Assembly: GCA_964617735.1 (NCBI GenBank)
Contig: CAZTXT010000001.1
Span: forward strand, 12,260 to 76,259
Direction of reading: 5' to 3'
Source of the DNA: an uncultured Candidatus Saccharibacteria bacterium
GTDB taxonomy: Bacteria > Patescibacteriota > Minisyncoccia > Phycocordibacterales > DSPV01
DNA: 64,000 nt
Shown: positions 20,040 through 49,833 of the stretch, piece after piece
Layout of the letters: the number at the start of each line of letters is the position of its first letter
Position numbering within the stretch: position 1 is the stretch's first letter
Notes under the pieces: model-generated
The model's database searches: none
Seen by the model: only the letters and a program-made list of their open reading frames with translations
What the model was told of the DNA's origin: nothing
Program-made: the position numbers and the translations under genes

Positions 20040-22586
20040 TTAGTTCTCGATAATCTTGAAGATGTTGCTTGGAGGAGGAACTGGTACGGTTGTTCCACTA
20101 ATTGTATTACTATTCCAAGATTTATGACCTACCCTTGTCGTTGTATACCTGAAGATTACAACGCATGCGTATGGAGCAACTGCGTTTGGCGTACAGGAAC
20201 TTGAAACTGGAATTGCTGTAACTGAAATAGTTGACGGTGATGGATTTGGGGTTGGCATGAGAGTAACAGGCTGAGGTGATGCTCCTGCAGCCATAGTTAC
20301 TGTTACACTTAGATCAAATGGTGCCCCACCATTACTTATGGCGACATCAGGTAAATTATTAGGAAGTGTATAAGAGAATGGTACCGGATCAGCAACAGTC
20401 ATACTAAAGGTAGTAGTCTTTGCCGGGGATGCACCATTTACTGTTATCGTTCGTGTGCCGAGAGTAGCTCCCGCCGACGCAGTATACGTAAAGGTGACTG
20501 TACATGTGTATGGGGCAACAGTAGTTGGCGTGCACGACTCAGAAGCTGGGACCGAAGTGAATGCAACTCCTGGTGCTAGATTTGACGGAGTCAATGTAAC
20601 TAACTGCGGAGAACCTAACGCCGCCGTCTGTGTAACAGTTACAATGTTTGTGAACGATCCTACACCTCGGTAAACAGTACCAGAACTCGGAGCGGGTGAA
20701 TTAAGTGAATAATCAAACGGAGCCGGATTTACGACTAAATTAAACTGGGTCGTCTGTGCTCCTCCAGAAACCGTGATCGTATAATTTCCCACCGGCGTAG
20801 TCGGATAGGTGGTCGCGATAGTCAGCTGACTTGAGCAGGTCGGCGTGCATGGATTATTGGTAAACGTTGCTGATGCGCCCGCAGGAAGTCCGGATGCGTT
20901 GAGCACAACGTCGGATGGGGCGCCGAAGGTAAGCGTGCGCGTGATTGTATTACTACCAGACGAGCCTTGTGTTACGGCGATATTTCCGCCATTTGAGAGC
21001 GTGTAGCCAAATCCGGCAGAATACAGAACATAGAATGCAACGTTTCCTTGATTGGCATGGGTTGCATAAACGAGATCCTTAGATGAATCGATCCCGACGG
21101 TTGTAAAAGGTTCTGTATATACTCCATAGGGAGCGGTAGAAGGTCTGACGATAGAGCTCGGGTCAGAGACGTTCAGAACACGGAGCGCGTTGCTCGTCGC
21201 CAAGAACGCAAATCCTCCGGCAACCGCAACATCATTGATATCTTCGTTATAGGGCACAATCGTGCTGTTGGCGTGGCAGGTACCGCAGACGGTAGGAGAG
21301 CGCGGATCTGATATATCAACAACATAAAAGTTCGGGCTCGCACCGCTCCCCAAACCTACATACGCATAATTACCCAACACTGAAAGTGCTAGTCCGTACT
21401 GATTCCCTGCAGGATTGAACGTACCGACCGTTGGCACAGGAGCTGCTACAACGGCAGGCGAAGTTACGTCGATAATCTCAACTTCAGGAGAACCAGAACT
21501 ACTCGAGATCGCAAGATACGCGAGCGTCCGAGTGCCGAGCCCAGGAACGATTTGCTCCCGCACAACGATCTTATAGATATTGTGATTGATATCGTAGGTA
21601 CCGAGCAATGTAGGACCCAACGGAGAACCGGAACCGGATGCATTGTGTACATCGTAAACGAGGAGTTCGGGATTGCTGACATTGTAGCCGATTCCGACGT
21701 ATAATCTTCCATTGTAGAAATAAAGAGTTCCTCCGCCATTACCCGGAGTAGAAGGGGGGAAACTGATCACCGTAGGAGACGGATGCGGAATGACCGTCAT
21801 CGCATTCGTCATGTCGATTATCTGAAGTTGATTTGAGGCTGCATCATTGCCTACATAGTTGTAGGCGTAGGTAATACCACTCGCGGCATTTCGAGCAACC
21901 TCGATCGCACTGTATTGCATCTCTCCTTCATTCTCTCGATCGCCGTCCACGATATCATTGGCGGGTGTAATCGGGGGATAGGAAGGCAAATTTCTTCCAT
22001 CTTCCGCGATAATGTCAGGCTTTCCAACCGCGTTGCCGCCGCTCGCTATATAGAGAATGCTGTTCTGCAGATCAAAATCATTGGTATCCACGTTACCGAG
22101 ATGACTGCGACTGACTTGGGTCAACAGTTCCGGATCATGCCAATCATTCCCTGGCGTCGGAGGAAAGGGGTTGCAACCGCCACCCATGGCCTTTGCAACA
22201 GCGATGTTCGCCACGAGCGTAGAGAAATTGAAGTACTGCGCGCGATTTTTTTCTGATGTCCAATTCGAATTATCGCCAACCAATTTCATGCACGGCGAAA
22301 CATCACCGATAGTGGTGTTCATGCTATAGATATCAGAAGTTGTGGCTTGCACAGTACCCGCCTGATTCCACAGAACCGCGGTCGCGACCGTTGAGGAACC
22401 GAGATCGCTCTCTATCCGGTACATACCGTGATTGGTGAGGTTCGAATCCAAGCTTGAGCTCTGGCCACCGAACGAGACCAGCGTAGCTCCGGTGATAAAG
22501 AAAATAGCTAGAGCAAATGCGATGAGCAACTCCAATGTGGCAATTCCCCGCTGTTTGTGATGTTTCTGAACCATAAATATCACCAT
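20040..22586 (-). CDS. giant pilin-like protein (prepilin-type N-terminus plus beta-propeller/LVIVD-like repeats and C-terminal Ig-like Thr-rich domains); candidate pilus tip adhesin
   Basis: N-terminal RGIATLELLIAFALAIF; repeated motifs YVVDISDP / LRVLNVSDP / VEIIDVTSP resembling LVIVD beta-propeller blades; 848 aa. Confidence 0.7.
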   Translation of the reverse strand: MVIFMVQKHHKQRGIATLELLIAFALAIFFITGATLVSFGGQSSSLDSNLTNHGMYRIESDLGSSTVATAVLWNQAGTVQATTSDIYSMNTTIGDVSPCMKLVGDNSNWTSEKNRAQYFNFSTLVANIAVAKAMGGGCNPFPPTPGNDWHDPELLTQVSRSHLGNVDTNDFDLQNSILYIASGGNAVGKPDIIAEDGRNLPSYPPITPANDIVDGDRENEGEMQYSAIEVARNAASGITYAYNYVGNDAASNQLQIIDMTNAMTVIPHPSPTVISFPPSTPGNGGGTLYFYNGRLYVGIGYNVSNPELLVYDVHNASGSGSPLGPTLLGTYDINHNIYKIVVREQIVPGLGTRTLAYLAISSSSGSPEVEIIDVTSPAVVAAPVPTVGTFNPAGNQYGLALSVLGNYAYVGLGSGASPNFYVVDISDPRSPTVCGTCHANSTIVPYNEDINDVAVAGGFAFLATSNALRVLNVSDPSSIVRPSTAPYGVYTEPFTTVGIDSSKDLVYATHANQGNVAFYVLYSAGFGYTLSNGGNIAVTQGSSGSNTITRTLTFGAPSDVVLNASGLPAGASATFTNNPCTPTCSSQLTIATTYPTTPVGNYTITVSGGAQTTQFNLVVNPAPFDYSLNSPAPSSGTVYRGVGSFTNIVTVTQTAALGSPQLVTLTPSNLAPGVAFTSVPASESCTPTTVAPYTCTVTFTYTASAGATLGTRTITVNGASPAKTTTFSMTVADPVPFSYTLPNNLPDVAISNGGAPFDLSVTVTMAAGASPQPVTLMPTPNPSPSTISVTAIPVSSSCTPNAVAPYACVVIFRYTTTRVGHKSWNSNTISGTTVPVPPPSNIFKIIEN

Positions 22587-23050
22587 TCAATACGCCCCTC
22601 GCTATTAATGTCAATAGTGTAGGATTGCCCGCTTTGTGTGAGTGTTACGGTGCCCGCACCAGAATAGGCACTCCCGGACAATCGATCAAATACAAGTGTT
22701 GTCGGGCTTGGAGATACCGTGATAGCCGAATTCCGCGGAGTACTCCTTTGATTGACACCCGGGTAAGTGTCCCCTTCGAACGCGATAATGTTGGATGAGT
22801 CGATGTAGACACCCTGCCTCATCTGATCGACGTTGGCGAGTGCGCGAGCACGAGCACCGAGCAGCATTTGCACGATTAAGTCACGCTCACTAGAAACCGT
22901 TGAGCGATTTATAGAATTTAAACTAAGAATAGCAGTGGCACCTGCAAGTAAGATAAAGACTCCTAGTACTACCAATACTTCAATGAGCGTGAAGCCTTTA
23001 TTAAGCCAAAGGGTGTGGCTTTTAGCGTGAAAGGTGTTGGGTAATTTCAT
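22580..23050 (-). CDS. minor type IV pilin (GspH/FimT-like)
   Basis: KGFTLIEVLVVLGVFILLAG prepilin motif. Confidence 0.8.
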   Translation of the reverse strand: MKLPNTFHAKSHTLWLNKGFTLIEVLVVLGVFILLAGATAILSLNSINRSTVSSERDLIVQMLLGARARALANVDQMRQGVYIDSSNIIAFEGDTYPGVNQRSTPRNSAITVSPSPTTLVFDRLSGSAYSGAGTVTLTQSGQSYTIDINSEGRIEW

Positions 23051-24329
23051 AGATCGGGGTGATAACAGAAACGGCGACGAATCCGACGATAAGGCCCATG
23101 AAGATCATCAGCACCGGCTCGATGGAGCTCGAGAGATTCTTCACGGCATCATCCACTTCGGCCTCATAGTGCTCCGAGAGATACATGAGCGAGTCGGAGA
23201 GCGTGCCCGATGCCTCGCCGATCGAGATCATGTGGCAGACAATGTCGGGAAAGAGCTTAGGCTCGGTCTCAAGATACGTCGAGATGCGCTCGCCTTTGAC
23301 GATGCGCTCGCGCAGCTCGATGCACTCTTCCTTATACACCGGGTTCGCGGTCGAATCGCTCGTTACCGTCGCCGCTTCGACGACGTTGAAACCGCTGCGC
23401 AACAGCAAGCTAAGCGTGCGGGAGAAATTCGCCATGTTGTAATCCTGCACGAGCCTGCCGAGAAGTGGCACGCGCAGTATGGTCCGCGCCACAAAGTAGC
23501 GGAAGGTTTTGTTGGCCCGGAGCAAAAAGAAGAACCCTGCAGCGGCAATGATAAGGCCGATCAAGGTATAGATGCCCCAATGGCGCAAGAAATTGCTGAT
23601 GAACAAAAGCGTCACCGTGGTAAAAGGCAAGCTGACATTGAGGCTTGCGAAGATCGGCATGACCTTCGGGAATATATAGACCGTGAGCAGGGTTGAGATG
23701 CCGATGGTTGCGAGCGTTATGAACGCGGGATAGACCAACGCGCCGATGACTTTGCGCCGGAGTGCATAGCGCTTTTGCAGTTCCTCGGAGAGATACACGA
23801 GATTGTTGCTCAAACTGCCGCTCATCTCGCCGACGCGAATGACGTTTATCGCGAAATCGCCGAAGCTCTCCTTAAAGCGCGCGAGTCCCGAAGAGAGCGG
23901 GCGTCCATTCGACACATCGTCGATGACGACTTCCAAAATCTTCTTCTTCGACTTTGCCTTCGTCTGTTTTTGCAAGAGGTGAAGACTTTCGAGTATAGGA
24001 ATGCCGGAGCGGATCAAAAAGGCGAGGCGCTTGGCGAAATGGACCAGGTCTTTCGTCGAGTAGCTTCCGAACACAAAAAGGCGGGAACGGCGCTTTTTCG
24101 TTTCTTTAGTTCCATACCCGATCGCGGGTGTTTGAGGCCCCGCCGGCCTATCTTTTTTCGAGAACGGCAGCTTCATGCGCTTGGGTGCATCCTTTTTCAC
24201 GTCGGACTTCTTGAGCGCCGGCGGCGTGACCGGAGTCGCTTTCTGTATCTGCGGCAAGAGCGGCGCTTGGGTTTCCCGCTCCGGCGTCGTCTTTATCGAA
24301 ATCTTTATTCTATGCTCCGAATCACTCAT
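23022..24329 (-). CDS. pilC: type IV pilus assembly platform protein PilC (GspF family) with Lys/Pro-rich N-terminal extension
   Basis: Two T2SSF repeats and three TM segments in the typical arrangement; ~90-aa basic N-terminal extension. Confidence 0.85.
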   Translation of the reverse strand: MSDSEHRIKISIKTTPERETQAPLLPQIQKATPVTPPALKKSDVKKDAPKRMKLPFSKKDRPAGPQTPAIGYGTKETKKRRSRLFVFGSYSTKDLVHFAKRLAFLIRSGIPILESLHLLQKQTKAKSKKKILEVVIDDVSNGRPLSSGLARFKESFGDFAINVIRVGEMSGSLSNNLVYLSEELQKRYALRRKVIGALVYPAFITLATIGISTLLTVYIFPKVMPIFASLNVSLPFTTVTLLFISNFLRHWGIYTLIGLIIAAAGFFFLLRANKTFRYFVARTILRVPLLGRLVQDYNMANFSRTLSLLLRSGFNVVEAATVTSDSTANPVYKEECIELRERIVKGERISTYLETEPKLFPDIVCHMISIGEASGTLSDSLMYLSEHYEAEVDDAVKNLSSSIEPVLMIFMGLIVGFVAVSVITPIYEITQHLSR

Positions 24330-25569
24330 GGGTTACGCGCAAAATCTCTTGGAAGGTCGTGTCTCCCGCGACAGCTTTACGCACACCGTCTTCGATCATT
24401 GGCGTCATGCCATTTTTGATTGCGATCTGCTTGATCTCGCTCGCCGATGCTTTGCGCAACATCGCCTCGCGAACCTCACTGTCAACCACGAGTACTTCTC
24501 CGATCACCGTGCGGCCGCGATACCCCGTATTGCCGCAGGACTCGCACCCTCTGCCTTGATAGATCTTGTCGATACTCTCAAGAAGATGCGCCGGCAGCGA
24601 ACCCGAGAGGCTCTGCCGCTCCGCGGCGGAGAGCACGCGCTCTTCTTTGCAATGTTGGCAGATCTTGCGGACCAAGCGCTGACCGATCGCGATGTTCACC
24701 GTCGAAGCGACGAGAAACGGCTCGATGCGCATATCCAGAAGGCGCGGCAAGGTCGTCGCGGCATCATTGGTGTGTATGGTAGAGAGCAGAAGGTGGCCTG
24801 TGAGTGCGGTGTTAACTGAGATCGAAGCGGTTTCGACATCGCGGATCTCGCCAACCATTATGATGTTGGGGTCCTGGCGGAGTATCGAGCGGAGGCCGTC
24901 TGCGAAGGTGAGCCCCGTGCGCGGATTGACCTGTATCTGCTCAATGCCTTCAACGGCATACTCGATGGGGTCTTCGATGGTAACGATCGAAGTGTCGCGC
25001 GTGTTGAGCAATTTGATAAGCGTGTAGAGTGTCGTGGTCTTGCCCGAGCCAGTCGGACCCGTCGAGAGGATCATCCCATGCGGACGTTTTGCCGCGCGGA
25101 GTATTTTTTCCTGATCTTGTTTTGAAAAGCCGATCGCTTCGAGCGTGAATTGCGCTGACTTATCGGAGAGGAGACGGAGCACCGCGTTCTCGCCGTAGTA
25201 GGTTGGGATTATGGAAATGCGAATGTCCACCGGATCACCGTCATAGCTGGTACGGAAGCGGCCGTCCTGTGCCGCTTGGTGTTCATCGGTGCGCAAACCA
25301 GCAAGCACTTTGATGCGCGAGATGACCGGCGCGTGCAGTTCTTTCGGGAGCGTGTAGGAATCGAGCAATACGCCGTCCACGCGGATGCGGACATGTACCG
25401 ACTGCGCATGGGGGTCTATATGGATATCGGACGCACGGGCCTGATGGGCATGCTCGATAAGGGATTGCACGAGGTTGATAACGGATGCCTCGGCGCCCCG
25501 CGCGATTTCATGCTGGACCGTTGTTTTGCTCGGATTTGTGGTCGGATTCATAAGATATCTTGCAAACAA
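24322..25569 (-). CDS. pilB: type IV pilus assembly ATPase, GspE/PilB family (short form lacking N1 domain)
   Basis: Walker A LSTGPTGSGKTTTLYT, Asp box, His box, C-terminal tetracysteine CQHC...CESCGNTGYRGR. Confidence 0.85.
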   Translation of the reverse strand: MFARYLMNPTTNPSKTTVQHEIARGAEASVINLVQSLIEHAHQARASDIHIDPHAQSVHVRIRVDGVLLDSYTLPKELHAPVISRIKVLAGLRTDEHQAAQDGRFRTSYDGDPVDIRISIIPTYYGENAVLRLLSDKSAQFTLEAIGFSKQDQEKILRAAKRPHGMILSTGPTGSGKTTTLYTLIKLLNTRDTSIVTIEDPIEYAVEGIEQIQVNPRTGLTFADGLRSILRQDPNIIMVGEIRDVETASISVNTALTGHLLLSTIHTNDAATTLPRLLDMRIEPFLVASTVNIAIGQRLVRKICQHCKEERVLSAAERQSLSGSLPAHLLESIDKIYQGRGCESCGNTGYRGRTVIGEVLVVDSEVREAMLRKASASEIKQIAIKNGMTPMIEDGVRKAVAGDTTFQEILRVTHE

Positions 25570-25711: not shown

Positions 25712-25763
25712 GTTCGCAGACCCAGTCGAATAAAATTCGACATTGAAAATAGAAAGGAAAACG

Positions 25764-27236
25764 ATGAACACGGAAAAAAATCTTGTACTTCCGGGAAATC
25801 CCCGCTATCAGCCGAGATCGCTCAAAGACATCTTTGGCTATGACAACCTAATGCGCTCTGTCGGAGAAGTGGAACTCGCTTCGCTCGAAGTCCTCCACCA
25901 ACTGGGAGTCGTGCCAAAAAAGGCCTTCGACTCGCTCACTCCAGAAGCGCGAGAAGCGATACTCAACATCAAAACGACCGACGTCGACGACATCGAGCGT
26001 AAAATAACCAAGCACGACATCCGTGCTTGGGTGAGATGTGCACAGGAAATAGTTCCTCCCCTCGCTACGTACATTCATATCATTCTCACGAGCTACGACC
26101 CCCTGGAGACCGCTCGGGCACTCCAATTCCGGCGGGCGCATGAGCTCGTCGTGAAACCGAAAGCCCTCGAGATCGCGGGGATATTTGCAGAACATATTGA
26201 GGCTTCTGCCAAGACAGTGATGTGCGGGCGGACGCACGGACAGCATGCTCTCCCGATAACGGTCGGCTTCTGGCTGGCGACTATCCTCTCGCGCATCCTC
26301 ACGAACCTCGGGATGATGGACCTCTTCGCGCGCGGCCTCGTCGGCAAGATATCAGGTGCCGTCGGCGCACATAACGCGCAGGTCGGCCTCAGCATCGCAG
26401 TGTACTGCGAGAACGCGGCGAGCGATGCAGGCGCGCCGTATGGTGATAAGGACTTCGAGCACCGAGTGCTCCGCAAGCTCGGACTCGAACCCGCGACGAT
26501 ATCGACGCAGATACTGCCGCCGGAGCCTCTGGCGTATTATCTGCACTCCGCAGTGCTCTTATCTGCATCGCTCGCACAGCTCGGGCGCGACTGTCGGCAC
26601 TTGATGAGGAGCGAAATCGCAGAAGTATCGGAACCGTTCGAGATCGGACAGGTTGGATCATCCACCATGGCCCATAAGCGCAATCCGATAAACTTCGAGA
26701 ACTTGGAGGGTATGTACATTCGCACGATGGCCGAGCATCAAAAAGTGCTCTCGACCTTGATCAGCGAACATCAGCGTGACCTCGTGGGAAGCTCGGTCGC
26801 ACGAGACTTCCCTATCATCATCATAAACGTCGTGCAACAGCTCGAGACGCTCCTCCGTAAGAACGACGCGGGAGTAGCATTCCTCGCGCGTATCCAAGTC
26901 AGCGAAGCGGCGTGCCTTGAAAACCTAGCTAAGAGCAAGAACCTCATCATGGCAGAGCCGATATATATCGCTCTCCAGATGGCCGGCTACGAAGGCGATG
27001 CGCACGAGCTGATAAACCGCAAGGCGATGCGTATCGCCCAGGAGAAGAACGTACCGCTCATCGCGGCCGTCCTCGAGCTGGCGGGCAGTGAGCCGAAACT
27101 CAACGCGGCGATCAGCGGGATTCCGTCCGAGGTCTTCGATACCTTCGGCACGCCCGAGAAATATGTCGGGGACTCGGCGGCAAAAGCCCTCGAAATAGCC
27201 CGATGGGCACGGGAACGCATAGCTGAATACAACTAG
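25764..27236 (+). CDS. purB: adenylosuccinate lyase
   Basis: Fumarate-lyase signature GSSTMAHKRNP; start placed at the ATG with RBS (25764) rather than 25743. Confidence 0.9.
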   Translation: MNTEKNLVLPGNPRYQPRSLKDIFGYDNLMRSVGEVELASLEVLHQLGVVPKKAFDSLTPEAREAILNIKTTDVDDIERKITKHDIRAWVRCAQEIVPPLATYIHIILTSYDPLETARALQFRRAHELVVKPKALEIAGIFAEHIEASAKTVMCGRTHGQHALPITVGFWLATILSRILTNLGMMDLFARGLVGKISGAVGAHNAQVGLSIAVYCENAASDAGAPYGDKDFEHRVLRKLGLEPATISTQILPPEPLAYYLHSAVLLSASLAQLGRDCRHLMRSEIAEVSEPFEIGQVGSSTMAHKRNPINFENLEGMYIRTMAEHQKVLSTLISEHQRDLVGSSVARDFPIIIINVVQQLETLLRKNDAGVAFLARIQVSEAACLENLAKSKNLIMAEPIYIALQMAGYEGDAHELINRKAMRIAQEKNVPLIAAVLELAGSEPKLNAAISGIPSEVFDTFGTPEKYVGDSAAKALEIARWARERIAEYN

Positions 27237-27245
27237 AAAAAGCGC

Positions 27246-27276
27246 GCGGCGCTCCTCCTCGGAGCGCCGCTTTTTT
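27246..27276. terminator. bidirectional rho-independent terminator between purB and ileS
   Basis: 10-bp GC stem GCGGCGCTCC-tcctc-GGAGCGCCGC followed by TTTTTT. Confidence 0.8.
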
Positions 27277-30200
27277 ATTTCAATTCGAAATCGCCGGAGG
27301 AGAGGACGCCGTGGTTTATTTTTGAAAGTGACGCAGATTTCTTGATTTCAGATTCAAACTCCTGAAGCAGCCCTGTCGCGGCGACCGATGAAGAAGTTGA
27401 GAGAATTGCGGACTGGCCGGGCTTGAGCCCTTTTTGCTTGCGCAACTCTTGAATAGTGCGGATGGCTTCGCGCAAATCCCCTTCCCGCTTGAGCGCAGGA
27501 GTTATGGCGGTATCGAGCTCAACGTCAGTAGCGAGTTTCGCATCGACGACTATTTCTTTTACATTCACCTCGTCGAGGATGAGCTCTGGTGCAGAGACTT
27601 TCGTTTTTATCGTGAGCTTGGCGAGCGGCTGGCGAACATTGATCTTGGTTTTGGCGCGAGTCTCAAGCGCACGTGAGACGATGTCGCGTACAACCTTCAT
27701 GTCCGCAATAACCGACTGGTCCACCCGCTTCGCTTCTGGCCAATCTTCAAGATGAACGCTTTCTCTCGCTCCCCCCGCATTTTTGTAGAGATATTCCGCA
27801 AAGAATGGCGTGAACGGGGCCATCAGCTTGCTCAACCCGATGAGTATTTCTCGCAAGGTCGCGAGCGCTGCCGCTTTGTCCTTTTCGTCATCGCCCTTGA
27901 TGCGCTCGCGTGAGCGGCGCAGATACCACTGCGAGAGATCCTCGATAAACTCGCGAATGGCGCGTGTCGGCTCAAGGAGCTGGAATGCATCCAGGCGCTT
28001 GGTCACTTCAAGCGTAAGCTCGGAGAGCCGTGCGAGTATCCAGCGATCGAGGACGTCGACTGGGCTAGGAATTGAAGCGGTCTTTTTGTCCTCTGGTGCA
28101 TATAAGAGATAGAACGAGAGAACGTTTGCGGCAAGATTGAAAACTTTTTTGACCACTTCATCCACCGTGCGCTCATCGAAATTCTTCGCCTCGCCGGGCT
28201 GGTTGACCGAGTACATCCAGAAGCGTAAGGGGTCCGCGCCGTACTTTTCTATAGCGAGCCACGGGTCAACGGTGTTGCCGAGGGATTTGCTCATCTTCTT
28301 TCCCTGCGCATCGAGAATATGACCGAGGCAGATGACATTTTTGTACGCTTTGCCCTTGCCCATAAGAATTCCTACCGCATGAAGGGTATAGAACCACCCA
28401 CGCGTCTGATCGATCGCTTCGGAGATGAAATCGGCTGGATACCCTTGTGCCTTGTGAAAAAAGCTGGAATCAATGCGCTCCCGATTTTCAAAGGGATAGT
28501 GTTCCTCGGCGAACGGCATCGCTCCCGAATCGAACCAGACGTCCATCACCTCTTTGACGCGCTCCATCTCGCCACCGCAGTGGTCGCAGACGAGCTTTAC
28601 CGCATCAATGTACGGCCGGTGCAAATCGAGCTCGAAATTTCGGTTGCGCGGAATCCGGCGCCATTTCAATTCTTTGATGGCTGAGTTTTGCATAAACAGC
28701 TTCCCCTTCGGCCTTACGGCAAGGGACTGGGATACGTCAAAACCTTCTGCAGCCGAGGTCATCATCCACAATGGACCGTCGTGGCTGACGATGAGAACAT
28801 TCTTGCCGGCATAGGCCGCGTCGACTTCTTGGAGAAAAGATGCGACCCTTGCCTTAATCTGCAAGCGGCCCTCGATACCCCGAGCGTTTTGATAGAAATC
28901 CTCCGAGCGATTGATAAATAAATTGGAGAGCTCGGCGCTCGGCATACCTTCAAGCTCACCAACGCCCATTTCACGGAGTCGCTCGTCGAAAACTATTTTC
29001 TCTTGGGGGATGCCGAGCCTCTCTGCGATTATCCCTGCAGTTTCTCTTGTACGCTGAAACGGCGAAGAGAAGATAACATCGATATGCTGACGGGCAAGAA
29101 CCTCGCCCGTAGCTTTCGCCTGCTCTATCCCCTGTTCGGTCAACGAGTACGCCTGGCTGCGATCCGAGTTGAGTACTCGCTCGACATTATTTTTCGCTTC
29201 GGCATGACGCACCAAATAGAAATGCGCCCCGTCGCTTTTGCCCTCTATGTCGGCAACCGAGCCAGCCACTTTCTCTCTGTGGCATTTCCCACACTTCCAA
29301 ACCGGAAGCGGTGTTCCCCAGTAGCGTTCACGAGAGATCGCCCAGTCTTTTATTTCGCGCAGCCACTCGCCGAAGCGACCGTCTTTGATGTATGACGGTT
29401 CCCAGTTGATAGTCTGATTCTCGGCGACGAGCTTGTCTTTGAGCGCGCTCATCTTGATGTACCACGAGTCGCGCGCGAAGTAGATGAGCGGTGTGTGGCA
29501 TCGCCAACAGAAGGGATAAGAGTGCTGGTATTTTTCTTTATCAAAGAGAAGCCCGCGCCCAGCGAGATCTTTGATGATGGCGACATCAGTCTCGGGATCT
29601 TTGACGAACTTTCCCGCGAGAAAGCCGGTTTCTTCTTTGAAGGTCCCATCGTCTTTGACGAGGTGTTGTTTCGGAAGTCCAACCTTCGTGCCAAGTTCAA
29701 AGTCATCCTGTCCATACATCGGCGCAATATGGACGATCCCGGTGCCGTCGGCAGTCGTCACGAAATCTGCCGCGTACACTTTGCATGCCGTTCCGTTTGT
29801 TTTCATAAAGGGATAGATCGGCTCGTACTGACCGCCGACCAGATCTTCACCGGAAGCGAATACTTTGAATACTTTGTATTTTTTATCTTTCAAAACCGAA
29901 AGACGTTTGGTCGCAAGAATAAGACGCTCTTTTGTCTCTTCGAGCTCAACTTCGGTGTATTCGATCTTTGCCCCTACCGCGAGTGCGACATTGCCCGGAA
30001 GCGTCCAGGGAGTGGTCGTCCACGCCAGAAGATACGTGTTGTCTTTCCCAACAACTTTGAATTTCACATAGACCGAGAGATCTTTGACATCTTCATACCC
30101 TTGCGCGAGCTCGTGGGATGAGAGCGCAGTACCACAGCGCGGGCACCACGGCACGACTTTGTAATCCTTGTAGAGTAAGCCTTTGCCGTGAACATGCTTG

Positions 30201-30706
30201 ACGATATTCCAGAGTGACTCGATATACTGCGGTTGGTAAGTGATGTACGGATTTTTAAGATCAACCCAGTAGCCGATACGATTGGTGAAATCAGTCCACT
30301 CATTCACATGTTTCCAAACACTCACACGGCAATGCTCGTTGAACTCGGCGATACCGTATTTCTCGATTTCTTTTTTTGATTTGAGCCCGAGCTCTTTTTC
30401 AACCTGGAGCTCCACCGGAAGCCCATGCGTATCCCACCCGCCCTTGCGAGGGACTCGGTAGCCGCGCATCGTCTTGTAGCGAGGAATCGCATCTTTGAAT
30501 GCCCGCGCCTCGAGGTGATGGATGCCAGGCTTTGCATTTGCCGTCGGCGGCCCTTCGTAGAAAACGAATTCTTTACCACCGTTGTTTTTCTCCAGTGACT
30601 TCTCAAAAATCCCCTCTTTCTGCCAGAAGGCTAGTATTTCCTCTTCCTGCTGAACAAGTTTATTTTTTGGCTTTTCATCCATAAAAAAATGCCAGAATGG
30701 AGCCAT
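27275..30706 (-). CDS. ileS: isoleucine--tRNA ligase carrying an inserted histidine-phosphatase (PGAM-family) domain
   Basis: IleRS hallmarks: HIGH-like PGIHH, editing-domain WTTTPWTLPGN and GTGIVHIAPMYGQDDFELG, YPFCWRCHTPLIY, DLHRPYID...WFDSGAMPF, KMSKSLGN. Between the CGKC zinc-knuckle and DLHRPYID, where family members have ~30 aa, lies a ~200-aa block with LVRHAE, SSPFQRTRETA, ERLREMGVGELEG and SHDG. Start taken at MAPFWHFFMDEKPKNK (30706) or MDEK (30682); the upstream 85 codons of the computed ORF are not protein-like. Confidence 0.85.
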   Translation of the reverse strand: MAPFWHFFMDEKPKNKLVQQEEEILAFWQKEGIFEKSLEKNNGGKEFVFYEGPPTANAKPGIHHLEARAFKDAIPRYKTMRGYRVPRKGGWDTHGLPVELQVEKELGLKSKKEIEKYGIAEFNEHCRVSVWKHVNEWTDFTNRIGYWVDLKNPYITYQPQYIESLWNIVKHVHGKGLLYKDYKVVPWCPRCGTALSSHELAQGYEDVKDLSVYVKFKVVGKDNTYLLAWTTTPWTLPGNVALAVGAKIEYTEVELEETKERLILATKRLSVLKDKKYKVFKVFASGEDLVGGQYEPIYPFMKTNGTACKVYAADFVTTADGTGIVHIAPMYGQDDFELGTKVGLPKQHLVKDDGTFKEETGFLAGKFVKDPETDVAIIKDLAGRGLLFDKEKYQHSYPFCWRCHTPLIYFARDSWYIKMSALKDKLVAENQTINWEPSYIKDGRFGEWLREIKDWAISRERYWGTPLPVWKCGKCHREKVAGSVADIEGKSDGAHFYLVRHAEAKNNVERVLNSDRSQAYSLTEQGIEQAKATGEVLARQHIDVIFSSPFQRTRETAGIIAERLGIPQEKIVFDERLREMGVGELEGMPSAELSNLFINRSEDFYQNARGIEGRLQIKARVASFLQEVDAAYAGKNVLIVSHDGPLWMMTSAAEGFDVSQSLAVRPKGKLFMQNSAIKELKWRRIPRNRNFELDLHRPYIDAVKLVCDHCGGEMERVKEVMDVWFDSGAMPFAEEHYPFENRERIDSSFFHKAQGYPADFISEAIDQTRGWFYTLHAVGILMGKGKAYKNVICLGHILDAQGKKMSKSLGNTVDPWLAIEKYGADPLRFWMYSVNQPGEAKNFDERTVDEVVKKVFNLAANVLSFYLLYAPEDKKTASIPSPVDVLDRWILARLSELTLEVTKRLDAFQLLEPTRAIREFIEDLSQWYLRRSRERIKGDDEKDKAAALATLREILIGLSKLMAPFTPFFAEYLYKNAGGARESVHLEDWPEAKRVDQSVIADMKVVRDIVSRALETRAKTKINVRQPLAKLTIKTKVSAPELILDEVNVKEIVVDAKLATDVELDTAITPALKREGDLREAIRTIQELRKQKGLKPGQSAILSTSSSVAATGLLQEFESEIKKSASLSKINHGVLSSGDFELK

Positions 30707-30734
30707 TCTAGCATTTTGAACATGTTTTTGAAAT

Positions 30735-31067
30735 TTACCCGTTGAGGTGGCGGAAAGTCGAGACAACGTGTTGCCACGCAATGAGGTTAGCGACAAACGG
30801 TATCGCGACCTGATGTGTGAGCAAGCCTTCGAGGTCTCTGACCTGATCGAGGGCAGACTTGAAGGTGCTGATGAGTATCGAATACTCATCCAACTGTTCG
30901 CTGTTGAGCTTTGCGCACAGCTCGCTATCGTCCTCCTTGGCAAATCTAACCGCATTATCATAAGCGACGCTAAGTTGCTGCTCTCGCTCGGTTTCGGAGA
31001 GTCTCAAGAATTTTCTTGAGAAAACCTCGGTGATTATCTGTGGATTCGTAATATCAAGAGTATTCAT
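30735..31067 (-). CDS. hypothetical protein (~110 aa)
   Basis: Start taken at MNTLDITNPQ; the upstream part of the computed ORF overlaps a strongly structured non-coding element. Confidence 0.4.
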   Translation of the reverse strand: MNTLDITNPQIITEVFSRKFLRLSETEREQQLSVAYDNAVRFAKEDDSELCAKLNSEQLDEYSILISTFKSALDQVRDLEGLLTHQVAIPFVANLIAWQHVVSTFRHLNG

Positions 31068-31123
31068 TATGGAGACCTTTCTGATGACAAGGTTACTCTG
31101 CGGAATTAATTTGTCAAAACACG

Positions 31124-31242
31124 AATCCGCTGAAAATCGATGAGGTGCGAGGCGCGGGCGAGAAGAGAAGTGAGCCATAGGAAACCTATGGTGAACGAGC
31201 ATCTCAGCCCGCAACAAAGCAGGTCGCGATTTTCAGCGGATT
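31124..31242. ncRNA. candidate structured RNA (~120 nt; closing 16-bp perfect helix, internal GC helices and apical hairpin). Class undetermined: small SRP-like RNA, sRNA or cis-regulatory leader.
   Basis: AATCCGCTGAAAATCG ... CGATTTTCAGCGGATT pairs perfectly across ~85 nt; internal GCGGGCGAGA/TCTCAGCCCGC helix and CCATAGG-aaa-CCTATGG hairpin. Sits 3 nt after the argS stop and upstream of ileS on the minus strand. Confidence 0.4.
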
Positions 31243-31245
31243 TTG

Positions 31246-32967
31246 CTACATCTTCTCCGGAACCTTGATACCCAGAAGCCACAACCCGTTGGTCATCACG
31301 GTTTTGAAGCTTCTGGTGAGCGCAACACGATACGGAGCGGTTTTTTCTTTCGCATCGGCGATCTGACGCTCGCCATAGTAGCGATTGAAGGCGGATGAGA
31401 GCTCGAGGAGATAGGTTGCGATGATATTCGGAGAAAGTTCACTCGCTGCGCGCGCTACGATGTCGGGGAAATGGGCGATGAGCCGCTCGACATCGGAGAT
31501 CGGCTCGAGAGCGGCGAGCGCGGCTGTCGCGCTCGCCGCGACCTTCGCCTCCTGTGCTTTTTTAAGGACCGACTGCGCCCGCGTCGCTGCGTACTGCAGA
31601 TACGGTCCCGAGTCGCCCTCAAGCGAAACTGATTTCTCAAAATCAAACACGATATCGCTGCCGATGGACTGTTTCAAGATGAAATACTTGAGCGCAGCGA
31701 TGCTCACCTGCTCGGTTATCTCCTCTTTTTCTGTATCGCTATATCCTCGGTCCACAATCTTTTCGCGCACTAAGTCAGAGATGCGCGCGATGAGCGCATC
31801 GGCAGTGATAATGTCGCCGCTGCGCGACGACATCTTTCCTGATGGCAGACGGAGCATCCCATGCGAGATGTGAACGGTCTTCTCCGCGAGCTTGGGAAGA
31901 ACCAGCTTCATGGCGGCTAAGAGAACTCGGAAATAATCGTTGACTTCATTGCCAGTCACGACGACCGAGCGGTCATATTTCCATTGCTCATATTTCATCT
32001 CTGCAAGGCCGAGTTCCTTTGCCTCGTAGGTCGGTATGCCCTGCGAGTTGATGAACACGCGGGTGTGCAGCTTAGGATCGTGTTTCTGTGCGTGAAAGAC
32101 CACGGCGCCGTCGCTCTTCTCGAAAATCTTCTTCTTGAGGCCTTCGTTGACAACCTTCATCCCCGTCGGGCCAGCCTCGCTTTCGAAGAAATAGAAATCG
32201 AACTTCGTGTCGAGGCGTTTATATTGCATCTCAAAATAGTCGAGTGAGACTTTCCGACCCCAGTCATAGAACGTATTGACCTCGCTATCGCTCCTCTCGT
32301 AGATCTTATGATTGAGCTTCTCGATATCTTCTTTATGGCCGTCTTCGTACGCCGCCGCGCCGAGCGCATACGCATGCCCGAGATAGCGCGCCTGCGCCTC
32401 AAGTCCCAGATTCTTTAAAGGGCTCTTGTCGCGATTCGGAACGCTCTGCATTCCCCAGATGGCTTTCGCAACATGAAGGCCAACATCGCCCTGATAGCAC
32501 GCTCGCTTAACATCTACTCCTTGTGCCTGAAAAAGTCTCGAGACCGATTCGCCGATTGTATTACTCATCAAATGGCCAATGTGAAATTCTTTGAAGGGGT
32601 TGGGGTCGGTGTACTCGACCATCACTTTCTCCTTTTTATCCGCTGTGCTCCAGCCAAAGTCTTTATTGTTCACTGCTTCGGCCAAGATTTCCGAGAAGTA
32701 TTCGCGCGTCAAGAATATATTGATGAATCCGGGCCCGGCGACCTCTACAGCGGCAACGCCGGCGATGTTCGCCGCGCGAATATCGCCGGCGATTTCCTCC
32801 GCAAGTTTTTTTGGGTTTGTTTTAAGAGTCTTTGCAGCAGTGAGCCCTACGTTCGTCGTTAAATCGCCGTTTACAAGATCTTCCGGCCGCTCGACGGAAA
32901 AACCAACAGAACCCGCACCCCGTGCGGACAGTATTTTCTGCAAGACCCTTTCAATAGTTTGTTTCAT
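31246..32967 (-). CDS. argS: arginine--tRNA ligase
   Basis: HIGH motif FHIGHLMSNTIG, KMSK-like MSSRSGD, C-terminal DALR anticodon-binding domain (...YLLELSSAFNRYY); 573 aa. Confidence 0.95.
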   Translation of the reverse strand: MKQTIERVLQKILSARGAGSVGFSVERPEDLVNGDLTTNVGLTAAKTLKTNPKKLAEEIAGDIRAANIAGVAAVEVAGPGFINIFLTREYFSEILAEAVNNKDFGWSTADKKEKVMVEYTDPNPFKEFHIGHLMSNTIGESVSRLFQAQGVDVKRACYQGDVGLHVAKAIWGMQSVPNRDKSPLKNLGLEAQARYLGHAYALGAAAYEDGHKEDIEKLNHKIYERSDSEVNTFYDWGRKVSLDYFEMQYKRLDTKFDFYFFESEAGPTGMKVVNEGLKKKIFEKSDGAVVFHAQKHDPKLHTRVFINSQGIPTYEAKELGLAEMKYEQWKYDRSVVVTGNEVNDYFRVLLAAMKLVLPKLAEKTVHISHGMLRLPSGKMSSRSGDIITADALIARISDLVREKIVDRGYSDTEKEEITEQVSIAALKYFILKQSIGSDIVFDFEKSVSLEGDSGPYLQYAATRAQSVLKKAQEAKVAASATAALAALEPISDVERLIAHFPDIVARAASELSPNIIATYLLELSSAFNRYYGERQIADAKEKTAPYRVALTRSFKTVMTNGLWLLGIKVPEKM

Positions 32968-33629
32968 AAGAGGATTTTCTGAACAGCCGCATACACGAGT
33001 TCGTGCACCTCGGGAATAGAGAGAAGTTTTCCGTTACGCTCACAATCAACCCGATGCCAGAAACTCTCTCTTGAGAGCATATATTTGCCGGCATCTTTCG
33101 AATTCTTGAGATACTCGAAATTCGAGTCTGCAGAATCGCGTATGCCTTCCCGTCTCGAAATAAGCTCAAGCGAGTGCTCATAGGACATATCCAGGTAGAT
33201 TATCGCATCGGGCTTTAATACGCCGAGTGTCCCGTACTCCATTGATTCGAGCCAGTTGAGGAATCGCGCGCGCTTCTTGTCATCGCGTATCTTTCCCCCT
33301 TGATGGATCTGATTGGAAGACACGTACCGATCGGCCACGACGATTTTCCCCGCATCGAGCCACTCTTTGATCCGTGGAACCGTCTCGAACCGGTCGCAGG
33401 CATATAAAACAGAGGTGATCTTCGGATCAAGCGAGATGAAATCGCCGCGTTTACCATCGAGACATTCACGGATAAGACCGCCGAAAAGATTCTTCTCATA
33501 TTGAGGAAAGCGGATGGACTCGGCAGGAATATGCTCTTTCTTGAATCGAAGAAGAAGCGCTTCAGTTTGAGTCGTTTTCCCTGATCCGTCCGTTCCCTCG
33601 ATCACGATGAACTTTCCTTTCCCCTTCAT
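32964..33629 (-). CDS. tmk: thymidylate kinase
   Basis: P-loop FIVIEGTDGSGKTTQ, DRY motif, LID region; 221 aa. Confidence 0.9.
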   Translation of the reverse strand: MKGKGKFIVIEGTDGSGKTTQTEALLLRFKKEHIPAESIRFPQYEKNLFGGLIRECLDGKRGDFISLDPKITSVLYACDRFETVPRIKEWLDAGKIVVADRYVSSNQIHQGGKIRDDKKRARFLNWLESMEYGTLGVLKPDAIIYLDMSYEHSLELISRREGIRDSADSNFEYLKNSKDAGKYMLSRESFWHRVDCERNGKLLSIPEVHELVYAAVQKILL

Positions 33630-33650: not shown

Positions 33651-34358
33651 CTACTTTTCGGCGAGTAACTCTTTAAGAAACACCAATGTCTCGTCGGGGT
33701 TTTTCACCGGATGCGTATCGATTACTCCGAGCACCGTGTCGTCGTTGCCGCCCGGGAAAAGCCTATCCCCGACATAGACGCATGCTGCTTTGTTCCAACC
33801 CTTTTGCTCGATCAACTGCGCAACATTGTAGCCTTTATTCTTGCCTTTGGGAGAATAGTCGAAGGTCGTCGTACCCCCGATCTTTACTTCCACGGTCTTT
33901 GAATTGAACGGGTGCTCGGCGAGCATCGTCGCGCGCCTCTTAGTATCGGGATCGAACGCCTCCTTTTTCTCTACATCCTCATTGTGACCCAAGAGACTAT
34001 AGGAGATCTGACTTCCTCGATCCTGCACCAAGTCGTCCTCATTGGAGACCTCCCACGTCCTCGGGATCGAAAGTATGTGCTTCCAAATCTCTTCTTTCTC
34101 GTCGGCAGAAAGGTCGCGGCGCCACAGCTCTTCTCCGGAAACCACATCGACGGCATGATTGCCGTTTTGGCAGAGATAGAGACAGGGAAAGCCTTCGGTT
34201 TGTTTTTCGATCAACTCTTTGGTTTGGCCGGAAACGATGATGACATCCCTGCCGCTTTTCTGCAGGGCACCGAGCGTCTCGCGCATCTCTTTGGTGATAA
34301 GCGACTTCGCTCGCGTGACCGTCCCATCCATGTCAAAAAATAAGTGAGTATAGCGCAT
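33651..34358 (-). CDS. phosphomannomutase, eukaryotic PMM/Sec53 type (HAD-IIB)
   Basis: LFFDMDGTVTRAKSLITKEM closely parallels PMM LFDVDGTLT...KITKEM; C-terminal GWNKAACVYVGDRLFPGGNDD parallels GWDKRYCL...FGDKTMPGGNDHE. Confidence 0.65.
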   Translation of the reverse strand: MRYTHLFFDMDGTVTRAKSLITKEMRETLGALQKSGRDVIIVSGQTKELIEKQTEGFPCLYLCQNGNHAVDVVSGEELWRRDLSADEKEEIWKHILSIPRTWEVSNEDDLVQDRGSQISYSLLGHNEDVEKKEAFDPDTKRRATMLAEHPFNSKTVEVKIGGTTTFDYSPKGKNKGYNVAQLIEQKGWNKAACVYVGDRLFPGGNDDTVLGVIDTHPVKNPDETLVFLKELLAEK

Positions 34359-35530
34359 TAGTGGTTACGTAAGATTGTATCGATACTCCGTGCAATGGCG
34401 ATGAAGTCTTCCTCCTTTTTACCGCGGGTCGTTTCCGCCGGTGTTCCCAGGCGGATGCCCGAGGGATCAGCCGGATTACGAGTGTCGAACGGGATCGCAT
34501 TTTTATTGACAATGATACCCGCGGTTTCAAGCAATGCGCTGGCATCCTTGCCACCCATGCCGATCGTGCCGAAAACGTCCACTAAAAGCAGATGCGTATC
34601 GGTGCCGCCCGAGACCAGCCGCCACCCCAGTTTCTGAAGGTTTTCCGCAAGCACTGCCGCATTTTTGATGACTTGCAGGGCGTATTTTTTAAATGCCGAC
34701 GTGTCGGCTTCTTTGAGCGCCACCGCGACCGCAGCGATCTGATTGGCATGCGGACCTCCCTGAAGGCCGGGGAACACGGCCTTGTCTATTTTTTTGTAAA
34801 GCTCACGGGTGTCAATGCGCGAGAAGATCATCGCCGCGCGCGGGCCGCGAAGCGTTTTGTGGACCGTGGTTGTGACCACATCCGCATACTCAAACGGCGA
34901 CGGGTAGACACCGCCCGCAACGAGGCCTGCGAAATGGGACATGTCCACCATTAAAATCGCCCCGCATGCATCGGCGATCGCCCTGAACTTTTTGAAATCA
35001 ACAATGCGCGGATAGGCAGTAAATCCTGCGACGATAATCGCAGGTTTCTCGGCAAGTGCGATCTCACTTAAATTCTCATAATCAAGCAGTTCGGTCTTCT
35101 TGTTCACCCCATACGGCACTTGCGTCCAGAATTTTCCGGTTGCCGAGACTTTGTGTCCATGTGTCAGATGCCCGCCGTGGTCAAGTGACATGCCCATGAT
35201 CTTTCCGCCGAGGGGCACGAGCGCGGTGTAGACCGCGAGGTTCGCCGGAGAGCCGGAGAGTGGCTGGACATTCACATGCCACTTGCCGAGCGAGAGGTTG
35301 AAGAGTTTGAGCGCGCGATTTTTCGCGAGCGTCTCGATCTTGTCTATGATCTGGTTGCCACCGTAGTAGCGAAAGCCCGAATATCCTTCTGAATATTTAT
35401 TCGTCAGTTCCGAACCCAGTGCCTCCAGTACGTCTTTGGAGACATAATTCTCGGACGCGATGAGATTGATAACTTTCTTCTGCCGCGCTTTCTCCGCGGC
35501 AATGAGTTTTTTGATTTGAGAATCCTTCAT
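34358..35530 (-). CDS. glyA: serine hydroxymethyltransferase
   Basis: NLIASENYVS start region, PLP-lysine region TTTVHKTLRGPR; 390 aa. Confidence 0.95.
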   Translation of the reverse strand: MKDSQIKKLIAAEKARQKKVINLIASENYVSKDVLEALGSELTNKYSEGYSGFRYYGGNQIIDKIETLAKNRALKLFNLSLGKWHVNVQPLSGSPANLAVYTALVPLGGKIMGMSLDHGGHLTHGHKVSATGKFWTQVPYGVNKKTELLDYENLSEIALAEKPAIIVAGFTAYPRIVDFKKFRAIADACGAILMVDMSHFAGLVAGGVYPSPFEYADVVTTTVHKTLRGPRAAMIFSRIDTRELYKKIDKAVFPGLQGGPHANQIAAVAVALKEADTSAFKKYALQVIKNAAVLAENLQKLGWRLVSGGTDTHLLLVDVFGTIGMGGKDASALLETAGIIVNKNAIPFDTRNPADPSGIRLGTPAETTRGKKEEDFIAIARSIDTILRNH

Positions 35531-49566: not shown

Positions 49567-49680
49567 CGTCTGTTCCTTTCTGTGTTTACAAGGTGTTATA
49601 TCAAGTCATAGACTCGATCCTGCGCAACCGTACCATATTCAGTCGTATATATCAAGGGCTCCTTGAAATCGGGCTTCTTT

Positions 49681-49752
49681 TGCTCCCGGCAGGAATCGAA
49701 CCTGCATCTTCTCCTTCGGAGGGAGATGTCCTATCCATTGAACTACGGGAGC
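49681..49752 (-). tRNA. tRNA-Arg (anticodon CCG)
   Basis: Manual fold: acceptor GCTCCCG/CGGGAGC, D stem GTTC/GGAC, anticodon stem TCTCC/GGAGA with loop CU-CCG-AA, T arm GCAGG-TTCGATT-CCTGC, discriminator A; 72 nt, CCA not encoded. Confidence 0.85.
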
Positions 49753-49833
49753 AGTCGGTTACTAGAACTTACCACAAGCATAAAAAAATCGCACCAAGAG
49801 GCTCTTGGTGCGATTGTGTTTGGCAAAACGATA

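Follow-up and report, generated by a model that had tools for sequence, protein, structure and literature searches.

The ileS locus examined here, in a CPR bacterium, raises the question of whether an isoleucyl-tRNA synthetase (IleRS) carries a working phosphatase within its own body and, if so, what such a domain does there. A sequence-only reading had described the gene product as an IleRS with an in-frame branch 1 histidine phosphatase between the CxxC knuckle and DLHRPYID. This was borne out by Pfam, TIGR00392, alignment and structure prediction. Within the window (the whole 64-kb stretch of DNA that was analyzed), ORF calling gave a single unbroken frame at 27275..30961 (-), and ileS was placed at 27275..30706 (-) from its TIGR00392 match and Pfam architecture. 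The Met at 30706 was taken as the start, giving 1143 aa plus the stop codon; a Met 8 codons further downstream is an alternative. The 1143-aa product is identical to NCBI protein P0121, encoded on a 674,686-bp contig. A second ileS was not seen in the ORF list of the 64-kb window.

The synthetase parts of the protein were identified as follows. The product scored 901.5 bits against NCBIfam TIGR00392 (cut-off 621.4), in two stretches on either side of the insert, and because the equivalog cut-off was exceeded it was assigned to the type-2 IleRS (IleRS2). Pfam tRNA-synt_1 was likewise found in two stretches, the best at aa 24-488 with 381.6 bits; His_Phos_1 (PF00300) was nested in tRNA-synt_1, as had been predicted for an HMM scan, and Anticodon_1 and DUF5915 followed, indicating a type-2 C-terminal region for anticodon recognition. 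The N-terminal part (aa 1-490, 29237..30706 (-)) aligned with 1ILE residues 12-479 and comprises the first Rossmann half, the CP1 editing domain, the CP core and the first half of the zinc knuckle. The C-terminal part (aa 692-1143, 27275..28633 (-)) aligned with 1ILE residues 487-819 and comprises the second Rossmann half with KMSKS, the anticodon-binding domain and the type-2 C-terminal domain (DUF5915). The editing domain was recognized by the motifs WTTTPWTLPGN (29990..30022 (-), from the translation) and GTGIVH, and it matched the isolated T. thermophilus editing domain 1WK8. Both class-I signatures were present: KMSKS at aa 804-808 (28283..28297 (-)), and the first motif in the swapped form GIHH (GXHH for HXGH; aa 61-64, 30515..30526 (-)), a documented functional variant in IleRS2. 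Among the best 120 homologues, G61, I62 and H63 were conserved in at least 90% and H64 was invariant. The GXHH motif in IleRS2 is described as conferring mupirocin hyper-resistance (PMC10485003), and the window protein shares this signature variant with the hyper-resistant IleRS2 subclades. The first CxxC of the zinc knuckle (C472-G-K-C475, 29282..29293 (-)) aligned with T. thermophilus C461/C464 and the second Cys pair (C707-D-H-C710, 28577..28588 (-)) with C502/C504, both pairs being retained in 119/120 homologues. In the translation, CGKC, DLHRPYID and KMSKS all lay where the earlier reading had put them.

The closest solved structures were T. thermophilus 1ILE and P. megaterium IleRS2 8C8U/8C8V (E=1.8e-250 and E=3.6e-244; TMt 0.90 and 0.80, respectively), which share the zinc knuckle, the CP1 editing motifs, KMSKS and the type-2 C-terminal domain with the window protein. 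The full-length predicted model had a pLDDT of 90.5 and a pTM of 0.83, with connectors to the insert at pLDDT ≥92, and Foldseek aligned it to IleRS2 structures at TMt 0.80-0.90. The model shows that all IleRS parts are present, with a predicted fold like that of the solved IleRS2 structures. In contrast, none of the solved IleRS chains that were matched has a domain in the zinc-knuckle loop, where the window protein carries about 200 additional residues.

These residues form the insert at 28634..29236 (-) (aa 491-691), essentially the same interval as the 28630..29224 claimed previously. PF00300 matched aa 496-661 with 129.1 bits (E=2.2e-37, gathering cut-off 21.7, profile positions 1-166 of 194). 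The insertion point is the loop of the second zinc knuckle, between C472/C475 and C707/C710. Alignment with type-2 IleRS delimited the insert, as had been proposed, and in the alignment to 1ILE the approximately 200 aa take the place of about 7 residues of the T. thermophilus enzyme (480-486). The hairpin that carries them belongs to the connective-peptide region, directly ahead of the second Rossmann half. The insert was predicted to fold independently (pLDDT 96.7) into the alpha/beta fold of branch 1 histidine phosphatases; the prediction shows a compact separate domain, matching the independently folded excursion that the first reading had suggested looking for.

The catalytic residues of the fold were all found in the insert. 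The quoted motifs were in place, with LVRHAEA at aa 498-504, SSPFQRTRETA at aa 547-557, FDERLREMGVGELEG at aa 573-587 and IVSHDGP at aa 639-645. R500-H501 (29204..29209 (-)) represent the phosphate-binding Arg and the predicted nucleophilic (phospho-acceptor) His of the RH[G/A] motif, R552 (29051..29053 (-)) in SSPFQRT is the second phosphate-binding Arg, and H642 (28781..28783 (-)) in VSHDGP is the second active-site His. E579 (28970..28972 (-)) in RLREMG is the presumed general acid/base Glu, a role taken from the established mechanism of the histidine phosphatase family. These residues, together with N507, E612 and R620, were invariant in 120/120 homologues. The catalytic core (RHG, second Arg, acid Glu and second His) is therefore complete apart from Gly to Ala at A502. 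The nucleophile motif had been called RHG-like; its catalytic His stood, but the exact RHG did not, the window having RHA where 118/120 homologues have RHG. The RHA variant recurred in 11/244 embedded domains and 8/155 free domains, and the pattern R-H-G/A-N-R-E-E-R-H was retained in 223/244 embedded and 142/155 free domains. Identity among homologues was 36.9% for the insert and 67.8% for the synthetase core. This comparison shows strict purifying selection on the catalytic set, whereas the remaining domain evolves at roughly double the rate of the synthetase core. Thus, this IleRS carries a complete and, as judged from its residues, apparently active histidine phosphatase domain in its catalytic body.

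Assignment to a characterized subfamily was less successful. The predicted structure of the insert was nearest to small-molecule phosphatases, such as PspA, GpgP and PhoE, and farther from the protein phosphatases, and dPGM structures ranked below the small phosphatases. In NCBIfam, the insert did not belong to the dPGM families (dPGM_arch, 103.4 versus a cut-off of 225; pgm_1, 25.8 versus 81.7; GpmB, 59 versus 261), nor to PspA (70.1 versus 350), CobC (88.6 versus 162.9) or SixA (33.6 versus 74.5). By these scores the domain resembles PspA, CobC and SixA, yet belongs to none of them. Because it fell below the cut-off of every characterized NCBIfam subfamily, its structural neighbors tell little about its substrate. 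The branch 1 small phosphatases compared were H. thermophilus PspA (4IJ5), mycobacterial glucosyl-3-phosphoglycerate phosphatase (6S2Q, 4PZ9), B. stearothermophilus PhoE (1H2E), the riboflavin-pathway HFP (9MMH) and CobC (6E4B). They share the catalytic Arg-His, Arg, Glu and His with the insert at an identity of only 21-31%. These enzymes are free, whereas the insert is embedded and has its own C-terminal strand and the connector motif NAExRxLxF..LPHN..YELD.

An assembly chimera, a frameshift fusing two genes or an intein-like selfish insertion could in principle produce such a gene, a reading to which we assign virtually no probability. PF00300 lay within 120/120 of the best full-length homologues. 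A genome scan, with a 7-sequence alignment of the phosphatase domain as the query, found a relative of the insert encoded by at least 564 species-representative Patescibacteria genomes. At 80/80 inspected loci, the domain sat in-frame inside ileS at the same site. The claim of one continuous gene rather than two thus held up, and the survey of CPR genomes proposed at the time did recover the same insertion. A frameshift or chimera was excluded on the grounds that hundreds of independent assemblies have the same in-frame architecture; GC was also flat across the insert and flanks (0.52-0.56). For an intein, the fold is that of a histidine phosphatase instead of HINT, the N-junction of the insert lacks a conserved Cys/Ser nucleophile, and the C-junction in the window is PRN, not HN. 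The comparative data have already refuted an artefact. Split ileS genes were also considered, and rejected, for proteins of about 500 aa with two domains on long contigs; these finish out-of-frame and represent frameshift or assembly errors in other assemblies.

The distribution shows an architecture inherited across a large Patescibacteria (Paceibacteria/Parcubacteria) clade. Some IleRS have tandem phosphatase copies (at least two) at the same site, with up to four Pfam stretches per protein, and the copies differ by single substitutions at most in the catalytic pattern. The insertion is clade-wide, not peculiar to this genome, and is already in public databases, unremarked: PGAP labels insert-bearing IleRS only as "class I tRNA ligase family protein", and a full-text literature search on IleRS and aminoacyl-tRNA synthetases found no published description of a phosphatase insertion in IleRS.

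Free-standing forms of the phosphatase were found in related lineages. In the window, argS (arginyl-tRNA synthetase; 31246..32967 (-); Pfam Arg_tRNA_synt_N, tRNA-synt_1d and DALR_1) lies directly upstream of ileS, an arrangement shared by 53/80 insertion-bearing loci. Homologues of 187-195 aa occur as separate genes in Staskawiczbacteria and other related lineages. The closest free relatives of the insert are the P0314 family (Staskawiczbacteria, Parcubacteria Licking1014_1), at about 33-44% identity and E 1e-20 to 1e-25; this family shares the catalytic pattern, the C-terminal GE[LV]RE[LI] strand and the address relative to argS and ileS, but differs in being encoded by separate genes beside an insert-less ileS. 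The free gene lay between argS and ileS in 8/8 contexts with enough sequence, and argS was upstream in 10/10 contexts; linkage to argS is thus at least as tight as that to ileS. No free gene away from argS/ileS was seen among the 10 contexts sampled. In the neighboring ileS (818-991 aa), the zinc-knuckle loop is short and has no insert, and this ileS comes in two divergent kinds, both above the TIGR00392 cut-off; the adjacency persisted even with ileS inverted. In a neighbor-joining tree of 253 domains, embedded and free forms were not cleanly separated: the P0314 family fell outside, and other "free" sequences, some of them probably fragments, were intermixed. Small ORFs in the gaps separating argS, the phosphatase gene and ileS were related neither to one another across loci nor to ORF 30735..31217 of the window. 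The median pI was 9.7 for free-standing homologues and 6.3 for embedded domains. RNA binding was considered on account of this basic pI and rejected, most neighbor genes being equally basic and some of the phosphatases neutral, which is a proteome bias.

Second catalytic domains in enzymes of translation or nucleic-acid metabolism have precedents in the class Ia CP1 editing domain, in ileS_w_GNAT (IleRS with an N-acetyltransferase domain) and in the RNase H/acid phosphatase of the Rv2228c type (NF005567). ileS_w_GNAT demonstrates that an enzyme domain of other origin can be accommodated in IleRS, although the window protein reached only 326 bits against that family's cut-off of 1999, and the phosphatase half of NF005567 scored 84 bits with the insert (cut-off 326). 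All three differ from the window protein in the fold that is inserted and in its site, and presumably also in chemistry, and none is a phosphatase inside an aminoacyl-tRNA synthetase.

Taking the locus and its relatives together, we give an even chance to the reading that the gene encodes a bifunctional type-2 IleRS with a PhoE/PspA-like, active phosphomonoesterase functionally tied to Ile-tRNA synthesis. Hydrolysis would proceed via a phospho-His501 intermediate; the phosphate would be held by R500, R552, N507 and H642, E579 would serve as acid/base, and the activity would be coupled functionally to Ile-tRNA synthesis. By analogy with the nearest structures, which are small-molecule phosphatases, the substrate would most likely be a small phosphorylated metabolite or nucleotide, not a protein. 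The sequence-only reading had proposed an adenylate-derived by-product, a 2'/3'-phosphorylated tRNA end or a ribonucleotide-like small molecule, and the present data favor none of these over the others. The phosphatase probably need not hold an exact position relative to the active sites of IleRS, since a single site accommodates two or more copies in tandem. The phosphatase and IleRS are linked genomically in two independent ways, by fusion and by neighborhood, which points to a tie between them; an operon partner of ileS would have become a domain of IleRS or, in other lineages, would have stopped being one. Every statement made here on the function of the phosphatase is one that we infer.

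The same data could reflect an active housekeeping phosphatase, acting on phosphoserine, phosphoglycerate or another metabolite and mechanistically unrelated to IleRS; we consider this unlikely, but a serious candidate. A neighboring gene would have been captured into a permissive surface loop by local duplication and deletion, and its retention would reflect only a cellular need for the phosphatase and a loop able to carry the cargo. The position of the free gene, a few bases from ileS, makes local rearrangement easy, and the domain is inserted at the tip of a hairpin; in other IleRS this tip is short and varies. The tandem copies speak against a geometry-dependent role, the nearest structures are metabolic phosphatases, and the highest-scoring NCBIfam match, although sub-threshold, is the archaeal-type dPGM. 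In the tiny and densely packed CPR genomes, moreover, two genes may adjoin in an operon for historical and not functional reasons. However, phosphatase-ileS adjacency has been kept over two very divergent ileS types and through inversion of ileS, the fusion counts as stable, with relatives in at least 564 species-level lineages, and the free gene stayed beside argS/ileS throughout the contexts sampled.

A dedicated role on a macromolecule appears improbable to us: the domain would remove a 2'- or 3'-phosphate from tRNA(Ile), or an inhibitory phosphate from the synthetase. HipA-type kinase toxins phosphorylate the KMSKS loop of GltX and TrpS, which is inhibitory, and KMS-type loops occur both in IleRS and in the adjoining ArgRS. 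The host enzyme holds the 3' end of the tRNA, with the domain tethered to it beside the CP core, and the fold of the domain includes the protein phosphatases SixA, PGAM5 and Sts and the tau55 domain of the tRNA-gene factor TFIIIC. Set against this are the greater structural distance of the protein phosphatases and the tandem arrays, which are hard to square with a precisely aimed site. PADLOC gave no match for the insert, for a free homologue or for the small ORF that separates argS from ileS, the basic charge of many free homologues follows the proteome as a whole, and we know of no nucleic-acid phosphatase in the histidine phosphatase family. The corresponding view of the phosphatase as a third active site of the synthetase, serving repair or self-protection by removing a blocking phosphate, is likewise doubtful; that phosphate would sit on the tRNA(Ile) 3' end, on the enzyme's own KMSKS loop (against kinase toxins), or on a phosphorylated compound that inhibits the Ile-AMP reaction or arises from it as a by-product. 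Recruitment of the fold for structure, tRNA binding or ligand sensing, with no hydrolysis, is very unlikely. Pseudo-enzymes do exist in this fold, such as the flea acid phosphatase pseudoenzyme 8gdl, and the window has RHA instead of RHG; yet RHA also occurs in free-standing homologues, and the catalytic residues are invariant in 120 homologues and kept in nearly all of about 400 domains, while the rest is about 37% identical.

Aminoacyl-tRNA synthetases are much studied, and their accessory domains (editing, tRNA-binding and signaling) have repeatedly given new biology. Hundreds of Patescibacteria species have the domain described here, and their relatives have a counterpart encoded by a separate gene beside ileS. 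As a consequence of the insertion, the NCBI pipeline gives these essential synthetases only a generic name, which can make CPR genomes appear to be without ileS. The zinc-knuckle hairpin of IleRS tolerates from about 200 to more than 400 residues of cargo, which may be of use in engineering. If the phosphatase does act as a third active site, it would represent a new quality control in aminoacyl-tRNA synthesis, one that would operate in trans in sister lineages through the gene between argS and ileS.

A single uninterrupted reading frame spans 27275..30961 on the minus strand, and translation of ileS from the Met at 30706 yields a 1143 aa product identical to NCBI protein P0121, which is encoded on a 674,686-bp contig. 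Pfam matched tRNA-synt_1 to this isoleucyl-tRNA synthetase (IleRS) in two stretches, the best at residues 24-488, and His_Phos_1 (PF00300) at residues 496-661 (129 bits, E=2.2e-37), with Anticodon_1 and DUF5915 C-terminal of the latter. The NCBIfam ileS equivalog TIGR00392 (cut-off, 621.4 bits) scored 901.5 bits in two pieces on either side of the insert (residues 491-691; 28634..29236, minus strand), and base composition was flat throughout the region. These results confirmed the proposal of the sequence-only reading that a histidine-phosphatase block lies in-frame within ileS, with PF00300 nested in tRNA-synt_1 as had been expected. All of the motifs quoted in that reading were found when coordinates were checked by translation; the sole correction concerns the nucleophile motif, which is present but reads RHA in the window, not RHG. 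The chance that the insertion is an assembly artefact is negligible.

The site of insertion was bounded by alignment with Thermus thermophilus IleRS (1ILE), in which residues 19-490 and 692-1020 of the window protein aligned with residues 12-479 and 487-819, respectively, so that approximately 200 residues stand in place of approximately 7. Two Cys pairs beside the insert, C472/C475 and C707/C710, were kept in 119 of 120 homologues; their T. thermophilus counterparts, counted from the 1ILE alignment, are C461/C464 and C502/C504. With a pair on either side, the phosphatase occupies the tip of the protein's second zinc-knuckle hairpin. This hairpin belongs to the connective-peptide region (named CP core, CP1, CP2, and CP3 in IleRS papers), between the WAISRERYWGTPLP motif and DVWFDSG, where the second Rossmann-fold half starts.

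A whole-protein AlphaFold2 model built from the 120-sequence alignment had a mean pLDDT of 90.5 and a pTM of 0.83, with the insert and both connectors at pLDDT 92-98. The modelled IleRS body superposed on solved IleRS2 structures, with TMt values of 0.80 for 8C8V and 0.90 for 1ILE; no matched chain of a solved IleRS carried a domain at the insertion site. Modelled alone, the insert reached a pLDDT of 96.7 and a pTM of 0.93, indicating a self-contained domain and bearing out the suggestion that it folds independently. One polypeptide thus combines an entire IleRS with an entire histidine phosphatase that folds separately; it belongs to IleRS2 and to the branch-1 histidine phosphatases alike and probably works like both. 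The nearest solved structures to the insert model were small-molecule phosphatases, below which ranked true mutases and protein phosphatases (SixA, 16.4; PGAM5, 15.3; Sts-2, 14.0). Against each characterised subfamily, the insert scored under the NCBIfam cut-off, and assignment as dPGM, PspA, CobC, or SixA was rejected for this reason; judged by these profiles, it is a superfamily member of no named subfamily.

PF00300 was present in all 120 of the best full-length database matches to the window protein (57-69% identity, 1091-1227 aa), whose named sources were Taylorbacteria, Paceibacterota, Parcubacteria, or Patescibacteria. R500, H501, N507, R552, E579, E612, R620, and H642 were invariant, and G502 occurred in 118 of 120; the catalytic residues of the phosphatase are therefore maintained. 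Mean identity to the window protein was 36.9% for the insert versus 67.8% for the synthetase core, a combination indicating that catalysis, and not simply a scaffold, is under selection. The peptide pattern [YF][FWY]VMRHGE, scanned against a single genome for each GTDB species, detected at least 564 stretches encoding a relative, a lower bound on the species count that comes from this one pattern. The insertion recurred, as a survey of CPR genomes had been expected to reveal: the domain was in-frame at the same site of ileS in all 80 loci kept from the scan. The flanks were 197-244 residues apart, except in locus L063, where a contig-end duplication garbled the gap calculation although the domain is in place. 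The duplicate (L063:5729-6321), an inverted copy of part of ileS and its phosphatase domain, is most likely a contig-end assembly artefact. When 1.84 billion cluster representatives were searched exhaustively without a profile, 1299 proteins matched at E<1e-10, and 95 of the top 150 had IleRS flanks.

The closest non-embedded relatives of the insert were proteins of 187-195 aa, including the P0314 family, annotated in Staskawiczbacteria and one Parcubacteria genome. Among the ten free-standing gene contexts sampled, argS was directly upstream of the phosphatase in all ten. Seven (L081-L086 and L088) had, in this order and in the same orientation, argS, the phosphatase, zero or one small gene, and ileS, separated by only a few bases; in L090, ileS was convergent, ending 3 bp past the phosphatase, and in the remaining two the contig stopped just past it. 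The neighbouring synthetases were bona fide ileS products, scoring 656-865 bits with TIGR00392, and fell into two very dissimilar kinds, one with a GVHH motif and approximately 37% identical to the window's IleRS core, the other with HYGH and 46-48% identical. Both retained the zinc knuckle, its loop being short precisely where the window has the insert. Since the argS-ileS synteny also holds in the window (argS, 31246..32967, minus strand) and in 53 of 80 loci with the insertion, the free gene is the positional counterpart of the embedded domain. Either the phosphatase gene shifted approximately 1.5 kb into the neighbouring ileS or it moved out of ileS, directions that a distance tree did not tell apart. 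The slot between the free phosphatase and ileS held a 238 aa gene with no assigned function in L086 and, in L085 (5570-6160, plus strand), a CYTH-domain gene (PF01928, triphosphate-tunnel enzyme family), which may be a hint of phosphate or nucleotide chemistry or a coincidence.

Some IleRS proteins of 1379-1468 aa carried more than one His_Phos_1 copy in tandem at the insertion site (P0245, P0355, P0254, P0296, P0320, P0357, P0295, P0317, and P0356). Six had two copies, whereas P0355 had three Pfam stretches with two complete domains and P0245 four stretches with three complete. The catalytic pattern was kept save for single substitutions (RHGA in copy 3 of P0245; E612Q/R620Q in copy 1 of P0295). 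Two-copy free-standing proteins, such as P0266 and P0374, were also found.

By analogy with the established superfamily mechanism, H501 would attack a phosphomonoester to form a phospho-enzyme, with the phosphate held by R500, R552, N507, and H642 and with E579 as the acid/base. The domain is linked to ileS in two independent ways, by fusion and by conserved neighbourhood, and from this linkage we infer that phosphatase activity was selected for co-expression and co-location with IleRS. Judging from the structural neighbours and the tolerance of tandem arrays, the substrate is more likely a nucleotide or small phosphate ester free to diffuse than a precisely positioned macromolecular group. 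A coupled bifunctional IleRS-phosphatase stands at roughly even chances. A phosphatase captured from next door without mechanistic relation to IleRS is less probable, a serious alternative. A repair role on a tRNA end or a protein phosphate is rather improbable. A non-catalytic module, against which the invariant residues argue, is very improbable.

At residues 61-64 (30515..30526, minus strand), where class-I synthetases have the HXGH signature, the window protein has the swapped form GIHH; G61, I62, and H63 were at least 90% conserved and H64 was invariant among the 120 homologues. The GXHH variant has been reported to confer mupirocin hyper-resistance in IleRS2 (PMC10485003), and the CPR clade bearing it is thus predicted to be intrinsically hyper-resistant. 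Between argS and ileS, a small minus-strand ORF (30735..31217) is listed at 160 aa, more plausibly approximately 110 aa from an internal Met; it had no Pfam or PADLOC match and no similarity to the equivalent small ORFs of other loci, and may not be a real gene. The surrounding genes are typical small-genome CPR content: on the minus strand, an 848 aa protein with LVIVD repeats (20040..22586), type IV pilus/T2SS components T2SSF and T2SSE (23022..25569), thymidylate kinase (32964..33629), a HAD/phosphomannomutase-like hydrolase (33651..34358), and serine hydroxymethyltransferase (34358..35530), and on the plus strand an adenylosuccinate-lyase-like gene (25743..27236). The 64-kb window contained three tRNA genes, all on the minus strand, for Arg-CCG (49680..49753), His-GTG (53204..53277), and Leu-GAG (54506..54589), and none for Ile.

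The principle has precedents: class Ia synthetases have their CP1 editing domain, one NCBIfam family consists of IleRS with a GNAT domain, RNase H/acid-phosphatase fusions exist, and TFIIIC tau55 contains a histidine-phosphatase domain. The full texts searched, largely outside the subscription journals, and recent IleRS papers gave no account of an aminoacyl-tRNA synthetase that houses a phosphatase; insertion-bearing sequences are already abundant in public databases. PGAP, the NCBI pipeline, gives these essential enzymes (P0144, P0150, P0161, P0187, and others) only the name "class I tRNA ligase family protein" and fragments the name "histidine phosphatase family protein", and P0483, a free 195 aa phosphatase, is named "isoleucyl-tRNA synthetase" by JGI. 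Across CPR genomes, the insertion causes ileS to be systematically misnamed or under-named; as a feature, it is well supported and readily testable.
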